Origin: Camelus ferus
Taxonomy: Eukaryota
Direction: 5' to 3'
Length of the DNA: 64,000 nt
Assembly (NCBI RefSeq): GCF_009834535.1
Contig: NC_045696.1
Span: 88,662,001 to 88,726,000 of the forward strand
A program made the position numbers and the translations under genes. This document shows positions 4,894 through 57,970 of the stretch, piece after piece (position 1 is the stretch's first letter; each line of letters begins with the position of its first letter). The notes below the pieces were generated by a model. The model saw nothing but the letters and a program-made list of their open reading frames with translations, did no database searches and was not told where the DNA came from.

Positions 4894-5034
4894 GGGGGAG
4901 GGTATAGCTCAGTGGCAGAGTGCATGCATCACATGCATGAGGTCCTGGGTTCAATCCCCAGTACCTCCATAAAATAAATAAACCTAATTACCTCCCCCAA
5001 AAAACAGAAAAAAAAAAAAAAAAAAAAAAAAAAA
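4894..5034 (+). mobile_element. Camelid Vic-1-type tRNA-derived SINE with poly(A) tail
   Basis: ggggagggtatagctcagtgg (A box) ... ggttcaatcccc (B box), then aaataaataaacctaattacctccccc and a long A tail; matches the camelid SINE as recalled. Confidence 0.9.
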
Positions 5035-5789: not shown

Positions 5790-6190
5790 TCTCTGGAGAA
5801 ATAAGGCCACTTGCTATCCCTTAAATGTCCTTCCTTTCCTGTCTTCATATCTTTGCTCTTGCCTTTTGCTCTGCCTGGAATGCACTCCTCACTATTGGGT
5901 CTCCAAATGTCAGTCTTACTAACCCATGAAGACCTGCCTATCTAAATGCCAGGTCTTCTGTGAAGCATTTCCAGATTGTCCACAATTGGCTGGCTTCTAC
6001 TTCCTTTAAAATCTCCCAACCACTGTGTATATCTCTTGGCTGGCTTCCACCTCCTTTAAAAACTCTCAGCCACTGTGTATATCTCTTAAATCAATAATCA
6101 TATTCTTGTTATATGACTATAGGTCTTCAAGTCTCATCCTCCAATGAGATGGCAAATTCTTCAGGGATAGGAACTGTGTTTTCCTCCCAT
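5790..6190 (+). mobile_element. L2 LINE relic containing a 50-bp tandem duplication
   Basis: 'ctctgcctggaatgcactcc', 'tcttctgtgaagcatttcc' and 'ttcagggataggaactgtg' L2 motifs. Confidence 0.65.
5986..6087. repeat. 50-bp tandem duplication (2 copies, diverged)
   Basis: ttggctggcttc...ccactgtgtatatctc starts at 5986 and again at 6036. Confidence 0.95.
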
Positions 6191-34713: not shown

Positions 34714-35104
34714 CTAGAGCTAGAAAATATTATACTTAGTGAAGTAAGGCAGAGAAAGACAAATACTATATGATATTATTACATGTGGAATCTAAAAAAT
34801 AATATAAATGAATCTATATACAAAACAGAAACGGATTCACAGAAAACAAACTTATGGTTACCAAAGGGGAGGAGGGGCAGGGACAAATTAGGAGTATGGG
34901 ACTAACAGATGCAAACTACTATACATAGAACAGATGAGCAACAAGGATTTACTGTACAGCACAGGGAATTATATTCACTATCTTGTAATAACCTGTGATA
35001 GAATATAATTAGAAAAAAATAACTGAATCAGTGTGCTGTATACCTGAAACTAACACAATACTGTAACTCAACTATATTTTTAATTTTAAAAAGTTTTTTT
35101 TAAA
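34714..35104 (+). mobile_element. 5'-truncated artiodactyl-type L1 3' UTR with TSD
   Basis: 'aacaaggatttactgtacagcacagggaa', 'acctgaaactaacacaa'; TSD aaagcttca(a/g)gtt at 34701-34713 and 35105-35117. Confidence 0.9.
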
Positions 35105-37428: not shown

Positions 37429-37562
37429 ATTTTTTTTAATTATTTTTTTGGCTGGGGGAGATAATTAGGTTTATTTATTTTTAGAGGAGTTATATGGGGA
37501 TTGAACCCAGGACCTCATACATGCTAAGCATGTATTCTACCACTTGAGCTATACCCTCCCCC
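37429..37562 (-). mobile_element. Camelid Vic-1-type SINE (antisense)
   Basis: Reverse complement reads ggggagggtatagctcaagtggtag...gggttcaatcccc...aaataaataaacctaattatctccccc plus an A-rich tail. Confidence 0.9.
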
Positions 37563-38954: not shown

Positions 38955-40515
38955 TTTACACCATACACAAAAATTAACTGAAAATGGACCACAGACTTAA
39001 ATGTAAGAATCAAAAATATAAGGCTCTTAAAAGACAACATTGGAGTAAATTTGTGATATTGGGTCAGGCAATGGATTCTTAAATACAACAAGAAAAGCAC
39101 ACAAGAGACAAATATATATATTTTTTCCCAATGGACTTCATTAAAATTAAAAACCTTTGTGCTACAAGAAAGTGAAAAAGAAAAAACTCAAAGAATGTAG
39201 AAAATATTTGCAAATTATATATTTGATAAGAGAATTATACCCAAAATATATAAGGAACTCTCATAGCTCAACAATGAAAAGATAAATAACTCAATTTTAA
39301 AATGGGCAAAGGATCTAAATCGACATTTCTCCAAAGAAGCTATGCCATATTCTCTTTGTGTGCTTACTGGAGATACATATATAGGGGGAGAGGGCAGGTA
39401 GAGAAAGGGATTCTCATTACAGAAATGCTTATCAAAATCTCGTTACACATCACTACACACGTTAAATTAGCTAAAGGTAAAAAAAGAAAGAAAGAAAGAA
39501 AGAAATACCAAATCTGGCGAGGACCCAGAGAATGCTGAGAAACTGGTTTTAACATTGCTTAGAGGAAGAGTATGGCAGTTTCTTATAAAACTAAACACGC
39601 ACTTCTTATACGACCTAGAAAAAGCACTCTCAGACATTTACCCCACAGAAAAGAAAACAAAAGAAAACTTATGTTCACACAAAAACCTGTACATAAATGT
39701 TCATAGCGGCTTTATTTGTGTTAGCCAAAAACTGAAAACAAAACAAATGTCCTTCCACCATGGAATACTACACAGCAATAAAAAGGAATGAACTACTGAT
39801 ACACACGACTTGGATGTATCTCAGGGCAATTATACCGAGTGAAGAAAGCCAATCTCAACAACTTAGATATATAATTATTTTAATAAAAATTTTAATTAAT
39901 AAAAAATCATGCATATCAGATTTATGTATTTTTATAAACATCTCTGTGAAGTAGGGAAGCTATCTAGAGTCTGGAGGACAGAGCTGTTGTTTGTCCTCTT
40001 TTCTGTGGTAAATGACTAAGACTTAAACAGTGGTTCCTAAGCCCAGAATGTTTACCAAAAATAAAAGGTAACATACTTCATGGTTCTATTTATGTAATGT
40101 TCTTGAAATGGCAAAGATGGAGAACAGACCAGGGTTGTCAGAAGTTAGGGAGGAGGAAAGAAAAGAAGTAACTGTGGCTAAAAAGAGTAACACAAAGGAG
40201 ACTTATGTTGATGGAACTGTTCTGTATCTTGACAGTGGTGTGATCACACAAATCTATACATGTTATAAAATTGTACAGAATTACACATGCATGCATACAC
40301 ACTCACTCACAAATGAGCACATGTAAAGCCAGTGAAATCTCAATAAGCACTATTATTAGATTATATTAAAGTCAATTTCCTCATTGTGATATTATACTAT
40401 AGTTATACAAGATGTTACTTTTGGGCGAAAATGTATGAAAGGTATATGGGGTATCTCTGTATTATTTCCTACAATTTCTTGTGAATCTACAACTATCTCA
40501 AAATAAAAATCTTTT
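38955..40515 (+). mobile_element. Fragmented L1MC/MD-type 3' region
   Basis: 'aaatgggcaaaggatctaaat', 'ggaatactacacagcaataaaaaggaatgaactact', 3' end 'gtgaatctacaactatctcaaaataaaa'; interrupted at about 39350-39420 and 39860-40070. Confidence 0.8.
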
Positions 40516-48840: not shown

Positions 48841-51218
48841 CTCATTGCTTCATGCAGATGCTAAGCTTCTCACAAACAGCCTGTCTGACCCTAGAAGGTG
48901 GCCTAACAGATTATTGGTGGAAAAAACCAAAATACAAAATCAGTTCCCATGAACTAAGCAATGCAGAAGGCCTTAGTCACCTGGCCCTCATCCTTTCCAC
49001 ACCAGGCTTTGTGTAGCAGGGGTCACGATAGCTTGCTTAGATTAACTTGAAATAATATTTTAAACAGAATGTCTTATTACGTAATTTTGAGCTGTTTAAT
49101 TCCACTCAAATTAGATCGCGATACTGAGGTATCATAAAGGACTACTCCAAAAAGCAAATATATATAAACAAAGCCTCTACTGCTATCAACTCATATTTGA
49201 ACCACACCTAATACTGCCTTGCCACCAACTCATCACTGATTTTTATTAAAAAGTTAATTCAGACCCCACACAGGTTTATATTAAATCATGTGGCCACTAA
49301 TGAAAACCTGGATTCTTCCTGGCAACATAAGAACCACGTTTAAACAAGTGCATTCTGATGCATCTAATATCAAACCCTCTTGGGTGCTGTCCAAGGTAGG
49401 TGCAGGCTACAGCTGGTACAGTTCAACTGAATACTATCCCCAACACCTAACATGTTCCTGGCATGGAATAGGAATTTGGAAAACGTTTTATTGATTTATA
49501 ATCTGTGCTAAAGTGGGCAATTAGAAAGCTTCTTTAAATAGTTCTTAAATACTCTTAGGTTTGCTACCACTGTAACCTTATGCATATTTACAAGTAGCAA
49601 ACTTAAGGCTATTTTTAAACGATTTAAACTAGTTTTGAAATTGCGGAAGAAAATATAACATCAAGATTCATCAGGAAAAAAAATATCTGGAGTATAATTT
49701 TTAGGTCTTAATTTCCCCACTGCAGAATGTGCAATTGGAGACTGAGGACAGAATTTCACCTATCAATCTTACGTGGATCTTGAGGCCAGAAAAATTCATC
49801 AATCAATGCAAAGACCTTAGAGTCTAATTTTCAGAGCAACAAAGGTTTGAATCATTATTTGACTTGTTTCTCTTCTATGTGAATCCAAACTTTTCTAATC
49901 CATTTGGAACACAAAATACTAAACTTGCAGGGTGGCATAGCAGTACACAAAATCCTCTCACTCCCAGGAAAAAGTTTATAAATGACTTCCCTTCAGGGCT
50001 TTATCCTACCTCAAAAATATGTCTTCACAGGAAAATTTATATGGCTTTTCTTTCTGATCTAGTATCAGATTGTGATTTAAAGCTCAGATTCAGTCCTCCC
50101 TCGGGAAGGTTACTGGGGGATTAAATAAGCTAGTCTCTAAATCATATGGATCACGGCTATCTCAGAGTTGACAAACAGCAGCTATGACAATGACCAAAAG
50201 GATAATCAGGATGAGAATGATGATGAGAACAGAAGTTTCATTTTAAATTAATCTAAAAACCATTGTATTCAAAAGAAATGCTTAAACAGAGAGTAAGCTC
50301 AGCTCACAAAGCCAAGATTCATCACACCAAGCTTGTAAAATCCCTTCTTGTTTTCTCCACTGCCCTAGGGATTTCAGTCCTGTTAATGTGAGAGGCCAAT
50401 CCACCTGAGTTTCCCAGGGCTGAGAAGCAGCGGTCAGCCTGCACCTTAGCAAGTTGAGGTGCAGAATGTGTGAAGGACACCTTAATGTGTTAAGGAACAG
50501 GCCAGGAAAGGGGTGCCAATGGGACCCAAGCTTGAGATTTTCTGCTGTCTTTAATGAACTGGAAAATATCTGTATGTTCATCCTGTACCTCCCACCCCTT
50601 GATAAACCAAAGCTACTGCTCCCTTAATAACTCTACCTCCCAAGCCCCTCTTAACGCTCAACCGTAACTCTGCCAGCTGACAAGCAGAGCTGACAGGCTA
50701 CAAATGAAATCCTGTTCCAGCCTGTCTACCTGCAGGATGCAAAGGGAGGCAGGAGGGGAACAGAAGGCCCCTGATAAGGGATGATCAGCCATTTTTTAAA
50801 GGTAGATGGAAAAGGGTAAACTGCATCTGATGTCCACTTAGACAAAGGAAAGCAAAAGAGCCCCCCTCTCTGGTCATTGAGTTAGTTGTCTGGCAGCCTC
50901 CTTAACCACAGTTTTGCCTTGTTTCAATCACAAGAATATGAAAGGAAGGAGAGTCTAAGACAAGTCAGAGATGGGGCAAAGCCTGGAAATGCCACTTCTA
51001 ACAGCTATCTGTGGACTGAGAAGTCAGGCGAGTCAATGCCAGGTGTCCTCCCCTCTCATCCCATTCACTCGTGTATGTATTACACATTAATTGACCACTT
51101 ACGGATGCCAGATACCACAAAAGCTATTAAGGATACAGAGATAAAGAGCTGTGTCCCTGTCGTCCAGGAGATGGGTGGAGTTTTGATAAATCAAAACAAG
51201 GAGGGAGGGCATTCTGGT

Positions 51219-51790: not shown

Positions 51791-54224
51791 GTATGTATGA
51801 TTCTATGGAATAGTCTCAATTCTAAACACTTTGTCACACTGCCTCCATAAACATACCCCTACCTATATCATGTATCATGATTTAGAGTTTGGCAAATATG
51901 GTCAAGCAAGGCATGGAATACATACAATATGCAGGTAAAGTAGCTTAATATCTACTATTCAGAGTTCAGAGTATCTTATTACCTGCTATTTGTAGAGTTA
52001 CTTAAGTACCACACTTACATAGCATCACGAAGTACTAACCTACTAACCCACATGGTTTCTACACACATTAATCTACACTTAATTAATCACATTAAGTCAT
52101 TAGCCAACGGGATAAGGTACACAGGTCTATGTGAAAACACAGTCTAATAGCTATCCCTTTGTCAGCCGCTGTGATTTGGCCACAGGTATACTTTCTGTCC
52201 TACCTCTCCAACTGTCTTCTTTAAAAGTAGAAGTGTTTTTGGATACTACAGCATGCACGTATTTTCCCCAGTTCTGACACTCCTACTCTTGGAATTTAAA
52301 ACACACACACACACTTTATACTGAGACACTTTCCCAGTAGGCATTTTGTATATAAAGGCACACACACCCCTAAAAGGGGGGAAAGAGTGTAACAAGAAGG
52401 AATATTACTGCTGTATCTAAAGAAGCCTCTTTAAGCATTAAGATTATTAAAAGAAAAAAAAAATCAGCTCGTGAAAAAGAATCTCAGAGGATAAGAGGAT
52501 TTCTGCTGGAAGTCAGCCCTCACAGAGGCTGACCACATTTGCAGATGCAAAATTCCATTACTTCCCCAACAACCTCAGCAACATTAGTCTCTGGCCAAAG
52601 GGCCAGAGGGGGAGGGAGGGGGGCTGTCCTCCTTCTAAATGGGGAAGGAAAGCAGCCAAGCAAAAAGGGTTTGAGAAAGAACAATGGCCTCCTGGTGAGA
52701 AAGTGTGTTAAGTAGGTCGGTATTGGAACCGCATTTTGTTGCACACAAATCCATCATTGTTCCTTTGTATTTCCCTTTCCTTTTCTTTCCCCCTTCTTTT
52801 CCCTCCTCTGCCCTATTCACTAGTACTGTCATCTCACGTGAGTTTTTTTAAACCATGATATATTTGTTCAATTATCTGTAGACCTGCGGCCTCTTCATCA
52901 AATTAGTTGATCTCTATTTATAGCTGATAATTCTGCAGAAGAGATCTAATGAAAATTCCTGAGAGTGATCAAACTAAGTCAAATTTTGAATTGCTGTCTT
53001 CGACCCAAGGATTGTTGCCATTTTCCAAGACATCTTTTTCAATGAGTGTTGTAAATATACATTTTCTTTCAAAGATAATACTTTTCAATAAGAAAAACTA
53101 GGCTGAGTAGTATCAGGAGATAACATTTCCACGTTTTCCTTCACTCCCTACTCCAAGATCACATTATCTTAAAAAATGAACTTTGAGAGGCAAAAAAACC
53201 CCAAATAAATCTAAATAGACTTTGAATAATGATTCTGTCAGGGAGGGAATTCATCTGTACCTGGTAAGTATAATCACAGAAAATGTGCTGATATATTTTT
53301 AGCAATTAATATGTAAAACTGCCAAAGAAACTCATCTATAATACTCAGTATACAAGTGTGACTTTTTTGTTGTTGTTGTTAATACATTTCATATTCATTA
53401 ATTTCACCAAACATTATTTCACTTATATTCAATTCACCAACTGTCCTAATGGCCTCTAACGCTATTAAAAGCATAATGAAGAAAAAATTCAAACAAATAG
53501 TATCATTAACACAGGGTCTTAAAAACAAAGACCCCAAACCATAGTCTGAGCCATGGATCAAAATCCATTGTAAAGCCCAAGCTGCGGTTCATCATCTTCT
53601 TTCAACAATTAAGGTTAAAGCACCTGAATGCCAGTGCATTCCTATGTCCATCATAAGACTCAACTCAGGGGCAAGACTAATACTTTAACCTACAGTAAAA
53701 AAAAATGCCTGAAAACAATGGAATCCAAACAGTCAAGTCAATGCATGGTTAGCCAGGCTAACCAGGAGGGCCAAAACAAGAACCCTCTCACAGCACAGGG
53801 TCCAACACATACCACAAGACTAGGAAGAAAGTGACTGGATCCATGCAGATGAGCTAGGCAGTCAGGAGCAGCTGGGTTTCAAAAGTCGAAGCACAAAGGC
53901 AAACTCTCACCTAGATCAGTTAAAGGTTGGCAAATGCAACCAGAATGAGCAGTAATAGTAAACCCTGCTTGAATGGTAAAAGCAGGCTGCACTCTGCCCT
54001 GTTTTATAGAAGCTACTGGGGATGGAGTGTTCGGGGTTCATAAACATCGATCAGAGCCAGAAAGAAGCTAGGAGCCTTTATGCATTTCTCTTCTAATTGA
54101 TGGCAAAATTACTTCAACAACACCAATGGCTCAAAAAGCGTCAGAGCTGTTTTTGCAGTCAAATATTCTTATCTTCCTTCTCATCCTATTGACTCAGCAC
54201 TGGCAGCCAAAATAATGAGGGAGT

Positions 54225-54425
54225 TCAGCATGAGTTAAGGGTACTGCTCTAAGTGACTCTGAAAAAGTTACTTAACTTCTCTAACCTATTCCACTGTCTA
54301 GGAAGTGGAGGGGGGATATGATACTTGTCTCTTGGGGTGGCAGAATGCAGTAATGCATGAACAAGCTTAGGACAGTCCAGGCGTACAGTTCAAGCAATCA
54401 ACAAAAGGGATTGTGCTGCTATTGT
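54225..54425 (+). mobile_element. MIR relic
   Basis: 'aagttacttaacttctctaacc...aagcttaggacagtccaggc'. Confidence 0.65.
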
Positions 54426-54462
54426 TACCAGCATTTTAGGTTAACCATTAAAATGCCATTTT

Positions 54463-55564
54463 TTTGTACAGCTATGTGCAAAAGAATCAAACTGGACTAC
54501 TTTCATACTATATACAAAAATAAACTCAAAATGCTTTAAAGGCTTAAATATAAGACCTGAAACCATGAAACTCCTAGAAGAAAACACAGGCAGTAAGCTC
54601 TTTGACATCAGTCTTAGCAATTTTTTTTTTGAATATATGTCCTCAGGCAAGGGAAACAAAAGTAAAAATAAATAAATGGAAATATATCAAACTAGAAAGC
54701 TTTTGCACAGGAAAATAAACTATCAGCAAAATGAAAAGGCCACTTGCTGAATGGGAGAAGATATTTGTACTGGCAAGGATGCTGAGAAAAGGGAACCCTA
54801 GTGCACTGCTGGTGGGACTGTATTTGGTGTAGCCACTGTAGAAAACAATACAGAGGTTCCTTAAAAAATTAAAAACAGAACTACTGTGTGACCCAGCAAT
54901 TCCACTTCCGGGTGTTTTTCTGAAAAACAAACAAAAAAACCCCACTAGTTCAAAAAGATATATGCACCCCTATATTCACCGTAGCATTAGTTACAATAGC
55001 CAAGATATGGAAGCAACTTAAGTATCCGTCCATTGATGAATGGATAAAGATGTGGTGTTATGTATGTGTGTGTGTGTGCACATTTGTTTTGCTTTTTAGA
55101 TTCTACATATAAGTGAAATCATACAGTATTTGTCTCTCTCTGACTTACTTTACTTGACACAATACCCTCTAGGTCCATCCACATTGTCACAAATGGCAAG
55201 AGAGAGACAAATACTGTATGATTTCACTTATATGTAGAATCTAAAAGCAAAACAAATGTGCAAAAATAAAAAAGAAACAGATTCATAGATACAGAGAACA
55301 AACTGGTGTCTGCCAGAAGGGAGAGGGTGGGGGGATAGGTGAAGGAGATTAAGAGGTACAAACTTTCAGTTATGAAATAAATAAGTCATGGGATGTAACG
55401 CACTGCATAGGGAATATAGTCAATCATATTGTAATAACTTTGTATGGTGACAGATGGTAACTAGACTTATCATAGTGACCATTTTGTAATGTACAAAACT
55501 ATCAAACCACTATGTTGTTTACCTAAAGTAATATAATACCATAAGTCAATTATACTTCAATTTA
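54463..55564 (+). mobile_element. 5'-truncated laurasiatherian-type L1 with TSD, internal deletion and inverted duplication
   Basis: L1 ORF2-end and 3' UTR motifs; perfect TSD aaaatgccatttt at 54450-54462 and 55565-55577. Confidence 0.92.
55077..55262. repeat. Near-perfect inverted repeat (65/64-bp arms, 57-nt spacer)
   Basis: 55077-55141 is the reverse complement of 55199-55262 except for one A/T-run indel. Confidence 0.97.
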
Positions 55565-56609
55565 AAAATGCCATTTTATAGGTCAAAAATGGCCCAATAT
55601 TGGCAATTTCATATAGCCCAACCTAAAATTTATATCATTGACTATGATCAATTTATTAGTATTAATAATAGTAGTAGTCTTGACAAAGATTTTTGACCTC
55701 TTAAGGTCCTACTTTAGGTTCCCAGATGCTCTCATTTCAATTTGGAAATGCTGACAAATAGAAACTACTCCATTGCCAGCACCTCTCTATCGATCTATCT
55801 TTGTCTATCTTCCCATAAAGATGTGTCAAGAATTTGGAGAGTCATCCTACATTATGTACAAAACATTACAAAAGGCTGAGGTCACCTTTTGCTGTGCAGT
55901 TTAACCATTTGAAGACACTATCCTAGGACCTGGAGCAAAAGAATTCAAATTCAGGAAAGTTAAATTAAAATATGGATGTTTAGAGACCATCAAAGGAAGA
56001 ACTTCAAAAATAAGGCTGGGTTCAAAGAAAATAAAATGAGACCCAAAGCAGAAAGTGGAGTATAAAAATATGAGACTAAAAATATATATTTATATATTTA
56101 AAATATTTTAATATATTGTCTATAGAGTATAAATATGTATTATTTCACTGAGGCTTTAGCTAACAGAGTTTTGATGTGTAGCTATCATCTGAGTGATGGA
56201 GGTGCACTGATCTATCCCCATCCTCACATTTGGTGCCCCTGATGCCCAAATGCCCACTTTGTCAGGTGGGAACTAGGGTTAAAAGGGCAGACTCTGGACC
56301 ACAGAATGAGCAAGCTAATTGACACCCACAGGATTCCAGCCCTGACCTTTCCCTCATAAGGGAACTCCCTACCCTGATCACACACTAACAGTGCTAAAAC
56401 ATGCATTTAAAATACCATCAACTTTATGACTTAGTACTTTAACAAGCACTCATAAATAACCCTTTCTGAAATTCAGTGAGAATCTTATGTCTAGATATGA
56501 AAGGCATAATGAAAATGAGAGCTCTCCTGGTCTCTGAATATTATGTGCACAATGACTCAAATAAGCCAACTTTAGAGAAAACTTTAGAGTAAACCTGGTC
56601 ATCTACAAT

Positions 56610-56850: not shown

Positions 56851-57889
56851 ATTACTGTCATACTAATCACCTCTGGTTATATCTATACTAATAATGATGT
56901 TATAAATATAGAAAATGAATGATGAACATTACAGAGAGCAATCATTATATATGAAGATAAAAAGTATAATCATCCATCCATGCAACAGAAATAAAAGCCT
57001 CAACTTTACGTCTTACTAATATATCACGTCAACTATTTTTGAAAACTCCCTCACTCTAGCCATCTGTAATCAAGAAGAATACTAAGAAAGATCAAGGGAA
57101 TAAACTAGATAAAGAACAGAAAACAACATTAACTGGTTTCCTGTAAATTAGAACTCCCTTCAACTTTGTCTTGCCAAAGGCTACACTGGCAACCGTCCAT
57201 GCCTGTACAAATTATGCATACTAATTTATGTTAATCAGGCTAATTATTTCTCTTGAGATAACAGAAGACAGTTCCATCTTATTATTCTGAGCTGTGACTT
57301 TCATGTTAACTTTATCTTCTAAGCTTCACTTTTCGTATTCCTTTTGTCTCACAGATTTTTTGTATGTTTTTCTCCTTTGACCTCATGTTATTTTCCTTAA
57401 ATATAGTCTTTTACTGAAAATCTTCCCGTTTAGATATTCTAATTCAACTTTCCTTGATTTAGCATTCAGGTTATTTTATGTACCAGGGCTTGGGACAGTG
57501 CCTTAAATGTAATAGATACTTCAGCCAATGGTTAAATAATTATAGCAAAGTATCTAGGGTCAGATCAGCCATTTGCAATATTCTAGATCTGGGTGCATGA
57601 GTTTTCATGACTACTAATACATTTTCACCATCGTGGGATTACGTAAATTATCACTTGCAGTAGGGTAATTTCTACTTGACAACATCTAAAATTAAAATGT
57701 CTTCCAACCCAATTGCTCATAGACAATTATTACCATTATGCTCAATAAAGTTAGGAAGTTTATTTATGGAGAATAACTAGACAATTTTTCAAAAAGGCAG
57801 GCTTTTAACAATCTAAAGACAATGGCATTATATTAAATGTTAAATGCACTAATCAAAATTTTTGGACCTAGAAACTCTTATTATATACA

Positions 57890-57892
<3 letters not shown>

Positions 57893-57951
<59 letters not shown>

Positions 57952-57970
57952 TATATATTATATATATATA
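57893..57970. repeat. (TA)n microsatellite
   Basis: Long pure AT run, 57893 to about 57948, then an imperfect tail. Confidence 0.97.

Follow-up and report, generated by a model that had tools for sequence, protein, structure and literature searches.

A long hairpin in a decayed Camelus ferus L1 copy, probably formed by a short-range template switch

Within a 64,000-nt stretch of the Camelus ferus genome (hereafter the window) we characterized a near-perfect hairpin located towards the 3' end of an L1 copy. The hairpin is an ordinary, somewhat long member of a known, named and common class of mutation, and it probably arose through a one-step, inter-strand, short-range template switch of the type called 1-3-4-2 or its mirror. 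The parts of the locus, in window coordinates, are the following.

54450-54462, plus strand: 5' copy of the target-site duplication, 13 bp, AAAATGCCATTTT
54463-55055, plus strand: segment A, a sense, 5'-truncated, decayed L1 ORF2 remnant
55056-55076, plus strand: (TA/TG)n microsatellite of 21 nt at the end of A, with the proposed switch point 1 at its end
55077-55141, minus strand: left arm D', a second, inverted copy of the ORF2 end (last codons and stop) together with the first part of the 3' UTR
55142-55198, minus strand: spacer C', inverted, 57 nt coding for the ORF2 C-terminus (about ORF2p 1242-1260)
55199-55262, plus strand: right arm D, in its native place, with the ORF2 stop probably at 55242-55244
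55263-55564, plus strand: segment E, L1 3' UTR, sense, collinear with a paralog in the window
55565-55577, plus strand: 3' copy of the target-site duplication, a 13-mer identical to the copy at 54450

The hairpin and its host L1 copy

The left arm (65 nt) and the right arm (64 nt) are reverse complements with a single indel, as the first-pass annotation had claimed: all 64 paired bases are identical, there are no mismatches, and the indel is a 5-base versus a 4-base A/T run. The inner 48 nt of the arms pair perfectly, the spacer has the 57 nt first attributed to it, and the left junction, on TGCA, does fall where a (TG)n run finishes. All of this, including the orientation of the spacer, is read from the assembled sequence. 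RNA folding, which the annotation had proposed as a check, gave a stable stem on both strands (z = -14.1 on the plus and -15.8 on the minus strand), with 0 of 200 shuffles on each strand folding equally well. When exact inverted repeats of at least 30 nt and at most 1 kb apart were sought across the 64-kb window, the hairpin alone was found; at a setting of 14-20 nt there was one further inverted repeat, a (TA)n run near 57900. The shuffles and the uniqueness in the window rule out a chance origin, and the hairpin is real as a feature of the assembly.

ORF2 homology, a 3' UTR, an A-rich end and a target-site duplication identify the host element, on sequence grounds, as an L1 retrotransposon copy. 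Translated, positions 54942-55076 match residues 1189-1225 of human ORF2p (E 8e-6), and a 13-mer shared like that of the target-site duplication (54450 and 55565) appeared in 1 of 5000 shuffles. The 13-bp duplication is itself a small inverted repeat, with 6-bp arms around one base, and both copies are perfect. Segment A is decayed, with 4 stops and 2 frameshifts counted by eye within 54602-55064 (~460 nt), and near 54770 some 275 nt of ORF2 that the paralog at 39076-39757 possesses are missing from the copy, a second rearrangement within one 1.1-kb element. Segments D and E together align to another paralog in the window (34751-34992) with 170 matches, 62 mismatches and 18 gap columns. That the arms are the terminal repeats of a DNA transposon is unlikely, because both consist of L1 sequence.

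Segment order and class of template switch

The ancestral order was reconstructed from relatives of the element. Querying with the end of A yielded 28 L1-like proteins at 62-80% identity, 11 of which matched spacer C on the minus strand, while three (P0006, P0016 and P0025) matched D on both strands. With a pattern search, the terminus of A was located in 15 of these proteins, 10 of which also gave a position for the beginning of C. In four in-frame relatives (P0010, P0011, P0016 and P0022) the end of A is separated from C by 16-19 residues, a peptide that has no counterpart at the hairpin locus; after allowing for the 21-nt microsatellite, the corresponding segment B would measure about 28-40 nt. 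The paralog at 34717-34992, in the same window, has C, D and E contiguous. From these matches of the relatives and the paralog we read the locus as A-D'-C'-D-E with B lost, which bears out the conversion of A-B-C-D-E that had been put forward. Read on the minus strand, 55077-55198 holds C' contiguous with D' in the native C-D order. Segment order, loss of B, arm identity, target-site duplication and L1 decay are shown by the sequence and these comparisons. The locus also demonstrates that template-switch events can be read with L1 relatives in place of an ortholog.

The identity assigned to the spacer had to be changed. It had been described as inverted L1 3' UTR, but residues 95-116 of P0022 match it, and P0022 aligns to human ORF2p 1149-1273 of 1275; the final codons of ORF2 therefore make up the spacer, where they lie on the minus strand, and most of each arm. 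The 23-residue spacer peptide by itself had no match in PDB or Pfam, and was placed through the relatives instead.

Two relatives, P0003 and P0007, carry a dinucleotide run at the same L1 position as the microsatellite at 55056-55076. In P0007, an unrelated L1 relative, dinucleotide expansion is accompanied by the loss of most of B at this same position, which suggests from sequence comparison that this spot of the L1 may be mutation-prone.

In the four-point notation of PMC5453318, the order 1-3-4-2 denotes an inverted repeat with an inverted spacer produced by an inter-strand switch, and this type accounts for 23% of the 794 high-confidence human-chimp events given there. The locus has the corresponding features: the nearby 2-to-3 fragment is present in reverse-complement orientation (55077-55198), the 1-to-3 segment (B) is lost, the points run 1 < 3 < 4 < 2 with point 4 after point 1, and all of them lie within ~160 nt. 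Short identity at the switch points, which the type allows but does not demand, would be compatible with the locus, where a few bases may be shared at the junctions as placed from the relatives, namely TGCA (55077-55080) on the left and up to 3 nt on the right; according to the authors of PMC5453318, 2-3 identical bases are enough at switch points. Unlike the surveyed events of this type, the copied tract here (D' plus C') measures 122 nt and sits in an L1. In great apes the median copied tract is 12 nt long and the longest 128 nt (PMC7954356), and maxima for human haplotypes are given as 97-180 unmasked and 318 overall (bioRxiv 2021.11.26.470150). At ten times the median the tract is long, yet within the published range. 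Repeat DNA, including L1, is described as filtered out of the published surveys (PMC7954356, bioRxiv 2021.11.26.470150 and PMC10710096). By itself the hairpin is of little importance; it illustrates a known class of mutation cleanly and stands close to the upper limit of the published sizes.

In the path that we propose, a truncated L1 would have inserted and decayed and, long after, a single replication error would have rearranged the end of its ORF2. The growing strand would halt where the TG run finishes (point 1). Some 150-160 nt further on, it would pair through ~4 nt (TGCA) with the opposite strand at the end of D (point 2). It would then copy 122 nt backwards, first D' and then C', leave at the start of C (point 3) and rejoin the normal template at the start of D (point 4), with up to 3 nt of microhomology. 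The outcome would be the loss of B (~28-40 nt) and the doubling of D, and a mirror event on the other strand describes it equally well. The one-step path, its microhomologies and its timing after insertion are reconstructions, with switch points placed from the proteins of relatives rather than from a pre-event allele. The first-pass annotation had spoken of FoSTeS or MMBIR, and switching and returning on short microhomology is indeed common to these; the names are applied, in PMC5453318, to long-range rearrangements of kilobases to megabases, whereas the event at this locus is local.

Age of the event and alternative origins

If the arms were as old as the L1, the chance of finding 0 differences in 64 would be 0.0014 at 5% decay and 1.4e-6 at 10%. 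The duplication therefore appears to postdate the element, unless the arms have meanwhile been made alike by conversion. Inverted repeats are open to re-homogenisation of their arms (PMC8604942), which would make the argument on timing less clear. With a chance of 0.26 at 5% decay and 0.065 at 10%, the perfect target-site duplication of 13 bp hints for its part at an L1 that may be younger than its stops imply. For the arms, 0 substitutions in 64 sets a 95% upper bound of 4.6% on divergence. Assumed rates of 1-2.2e-9 per site per year would turn this into an upper age of 10-23 Myr. With a rate of 2.5e-8 per 5-year generation (PMC8605555), the same arithmetic gives about 4.6 Myr. The event had been called recent, and so it is relative to the decayed L1; in absolute terms its age may reach ~5-23 Myr, and it could be fixed in all Old World camels or be polymorphic.

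The geometry first reported as the signature of short-range template switching does match type 1-3-4-2, but it is not unique to a one-step switch. We allow a minor chance to a course in two steps, in which the growing bottom strand would fold back into a hairpin with a 57-nt loop, the same 3-nt match acting as primer, to give A-D'-C-D-E, and a later switch or recombination between the arms would invert the spacer. The same two junction microhomologies serve either path; simple inverted-repeat events (1-4-3-2 and its mirror) represent 31% of those in PMC5453318, and creation of a stem followed by inversion of its loop is reported for hsa-mir-4713 and mmu-mir-3086 (PMC10710096). However, two events would be needed while the arms kept 0 substitutions in 64 bp, loop inversions amount to only 4 among the miRNA loci examined in PMC10710096, and one step suffices and is common, at the 23% given above. 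A corollary of the two-step course is that both spacer orientations could still segregate.

The same product could be reached with no fork at all, through polymerase-theta-type end joining of a double-strand break at the TG run, with B deleted and the gap filled by an inverted copy templated from the downstream flank. A short deletion, a local inverted insert and microhomologies of 3-4 nt fit this pathway, but its inserts are usually much shorter than 122 nt, and the template needed here would be the strand that resection would remove. We consider this origin unlikely.

We also weighed an assembly artefact, either a spacer flipped between the arms or an inverted copy derived from a chimeric read. 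Up to k = 49, the observed allele and its spacer-flipped counterpart have every canonical k-mer in common, and the orientation of the spacer is therefore beyond the reach of a short-k graph. A sequencing-run index was queried with 252 words from window positions 53800-56400, 44% of which touch the L1. Fourteen DNA or unlabelled runs (7 studies, 2 organisms) contain 0.85-0.88 of these words, and the L1 insertion is therefore common to those runs. Words specific to the junctions make up 2-3% of the stretch, less than the shortfall of 12-15%, so the index cannot resolve the rearrangement; hairpin-touching words amount to 8.4%, and the ceiling common to all 14 runs could include their loss. Against an artefact stand the indel between the arms, which is not expected of a collapsed repeat, and the absence of B between flanks in correct L1 order within an intact target-site duplication, unlike a simple fold-back chimera. 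The locus is moreover on a piece of more than 80 Mb, which suggests a modern assembly, and a flipped spacer would alter the type of event while leaving the hairpin in place. Altogether an artefact seems quite improbable.

An origin during L1 insertion was the last alternative. In its simple form, twin priming is discarded: the inversion starts at 55077, and it is sense ORF2 (54463-55055) that adjoins the 5' target-site duplication. On this the earlier dismissal of twin priming holds, with the 5' sense L1 and the near-identical arms both disfavouring the simple form. What is left is a variant, very improbable in our view, in which twin priming with duplication was joined by an extra switch of the reverse transcriptase and the arms were later converted. 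Twin priming with internal duplication does give D'-C'-D-E, in 17% of inverted insertions according to bioRxiv 2024.08.27.596794, where variants with additional switches are also described; like the locus, its products contain L1 sequence in inverted orientation that overlaps with the beginning of the sense 3' part, within one target-site duplication. The perfect duplication and the second internal rearrangement of this copy could be counted in its favour. Yet the variants described in that preprint retain a 5' inversion, whereas here ~600 nt of sense L1 lie between the 5' target-site duplication and the inversion. The arms, besides, do not look as old as the insertion but much younger (0 substitutions in 64, while ~460 nt of the decayed element hold 4 stops and 2 frameshifts), and they share bases that differ from the paralog and, by eye, from P0016 and P0025.

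Function of the hairpin and its surroundings

A single template switch would make the stem perfect in one step, so a perfect stem needs no selection to explain it. Most likely the hairpin does nothing and will decay neutrally. With a 57-nt spacer, cruciform extrusion is less likely than in a tight palindrome. The suggestion that a transcript of the arms could be a substrate of ADAR, Drosha or Dicer found no support. The hairpin is a stable stem-loop, as a precursor of miRNAs or endo-siRNAs should be, but its 64-bp stem and 57-nt loop depart from the preferred stem of ~35 bp and short loop; the preferred stem of a miRNA precursor (Drosha) is given as 35 bp in PMC10710096. The base rate is also low, with annotated miRNAs at 57 of the 6,054 template-switch hairpins in human genes (~0.9%) in the same source. 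Rfam placed no family at the hairpin locus, its one match in the window being the tRNA-like head of a SINE (4898-4969), and a known RNA family was discarded on this basis. The hairpin resembles the template-switch miRNA hairpins of Monttinen et al. 2023 (PMC10710096) in its perfect stem from one event, its inverted loop and its possibly intronic position, and differs from them (hsa-mir-4713 and mmu-mir-3086) in the sizes of stem and loop and in the lack of an Rfam match. RNA runs were 6 of the 24 listed by the index, with word shares of 0.42, 0.29, 0.14, 0.11, 0.06 and 0.05, which are no evidence of transcription, as DNA carry-over is possible.

It is extremely improbable that the hairpin is part of a transcribed intron and that small RNAs are diced from it or ADAR edits it. 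If this were true, one replication error would have given the camel lineage a source of small RNAs which, since the two arms derive from the ORF2 end, would be antisense to an abundant L1 family; the spacer might even still be flipping between alleles. The locus would gain importance if camels turned out to carry the spacer in both orientations, or if the stem proved to be edited or to yield small RNAs.

A second, decayed hairpin is found at 49517-49644, with 44 of 59 aligned columns complementary and a loop of ~10 nt. It may be what is left of an old template switch or of a small DNA transposon, and may show the usual fate of such stems.

When the whole 64-kb window is divided into 32 bins, A is in excess over T in 31 of them and C over G in 23, and A-runs outnumber T-runs by 15 to 6. 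The A/T skew would fit an intron of a minus-strand gene, and the window is possibly one long intron; as a guess from synteny with IL12A, this could be PPM1L's long first intron. No convincing exon came out of a rough exon finder based on splice weights, and hence no host gene is shown; neither was there a CpG-rich block. Pfam searches returned 0 of 6 and 0 of 20 proteins above the cut-off, 16 of the 20 coming from the 39 long ORFs of the window. Other repeats were noted along the stretch. A tRNA-derived SINE with an A tail occupies 4894-5034 and contains the Rfam tRNA match; a second copy, 83% identical, is at 37430-37562 on the opposite strand. There are also a 50-bp, two-copy tandem duplication with a 90% match at 5986-6087, and a (TA)n run of 45 copies at 57882-57970.
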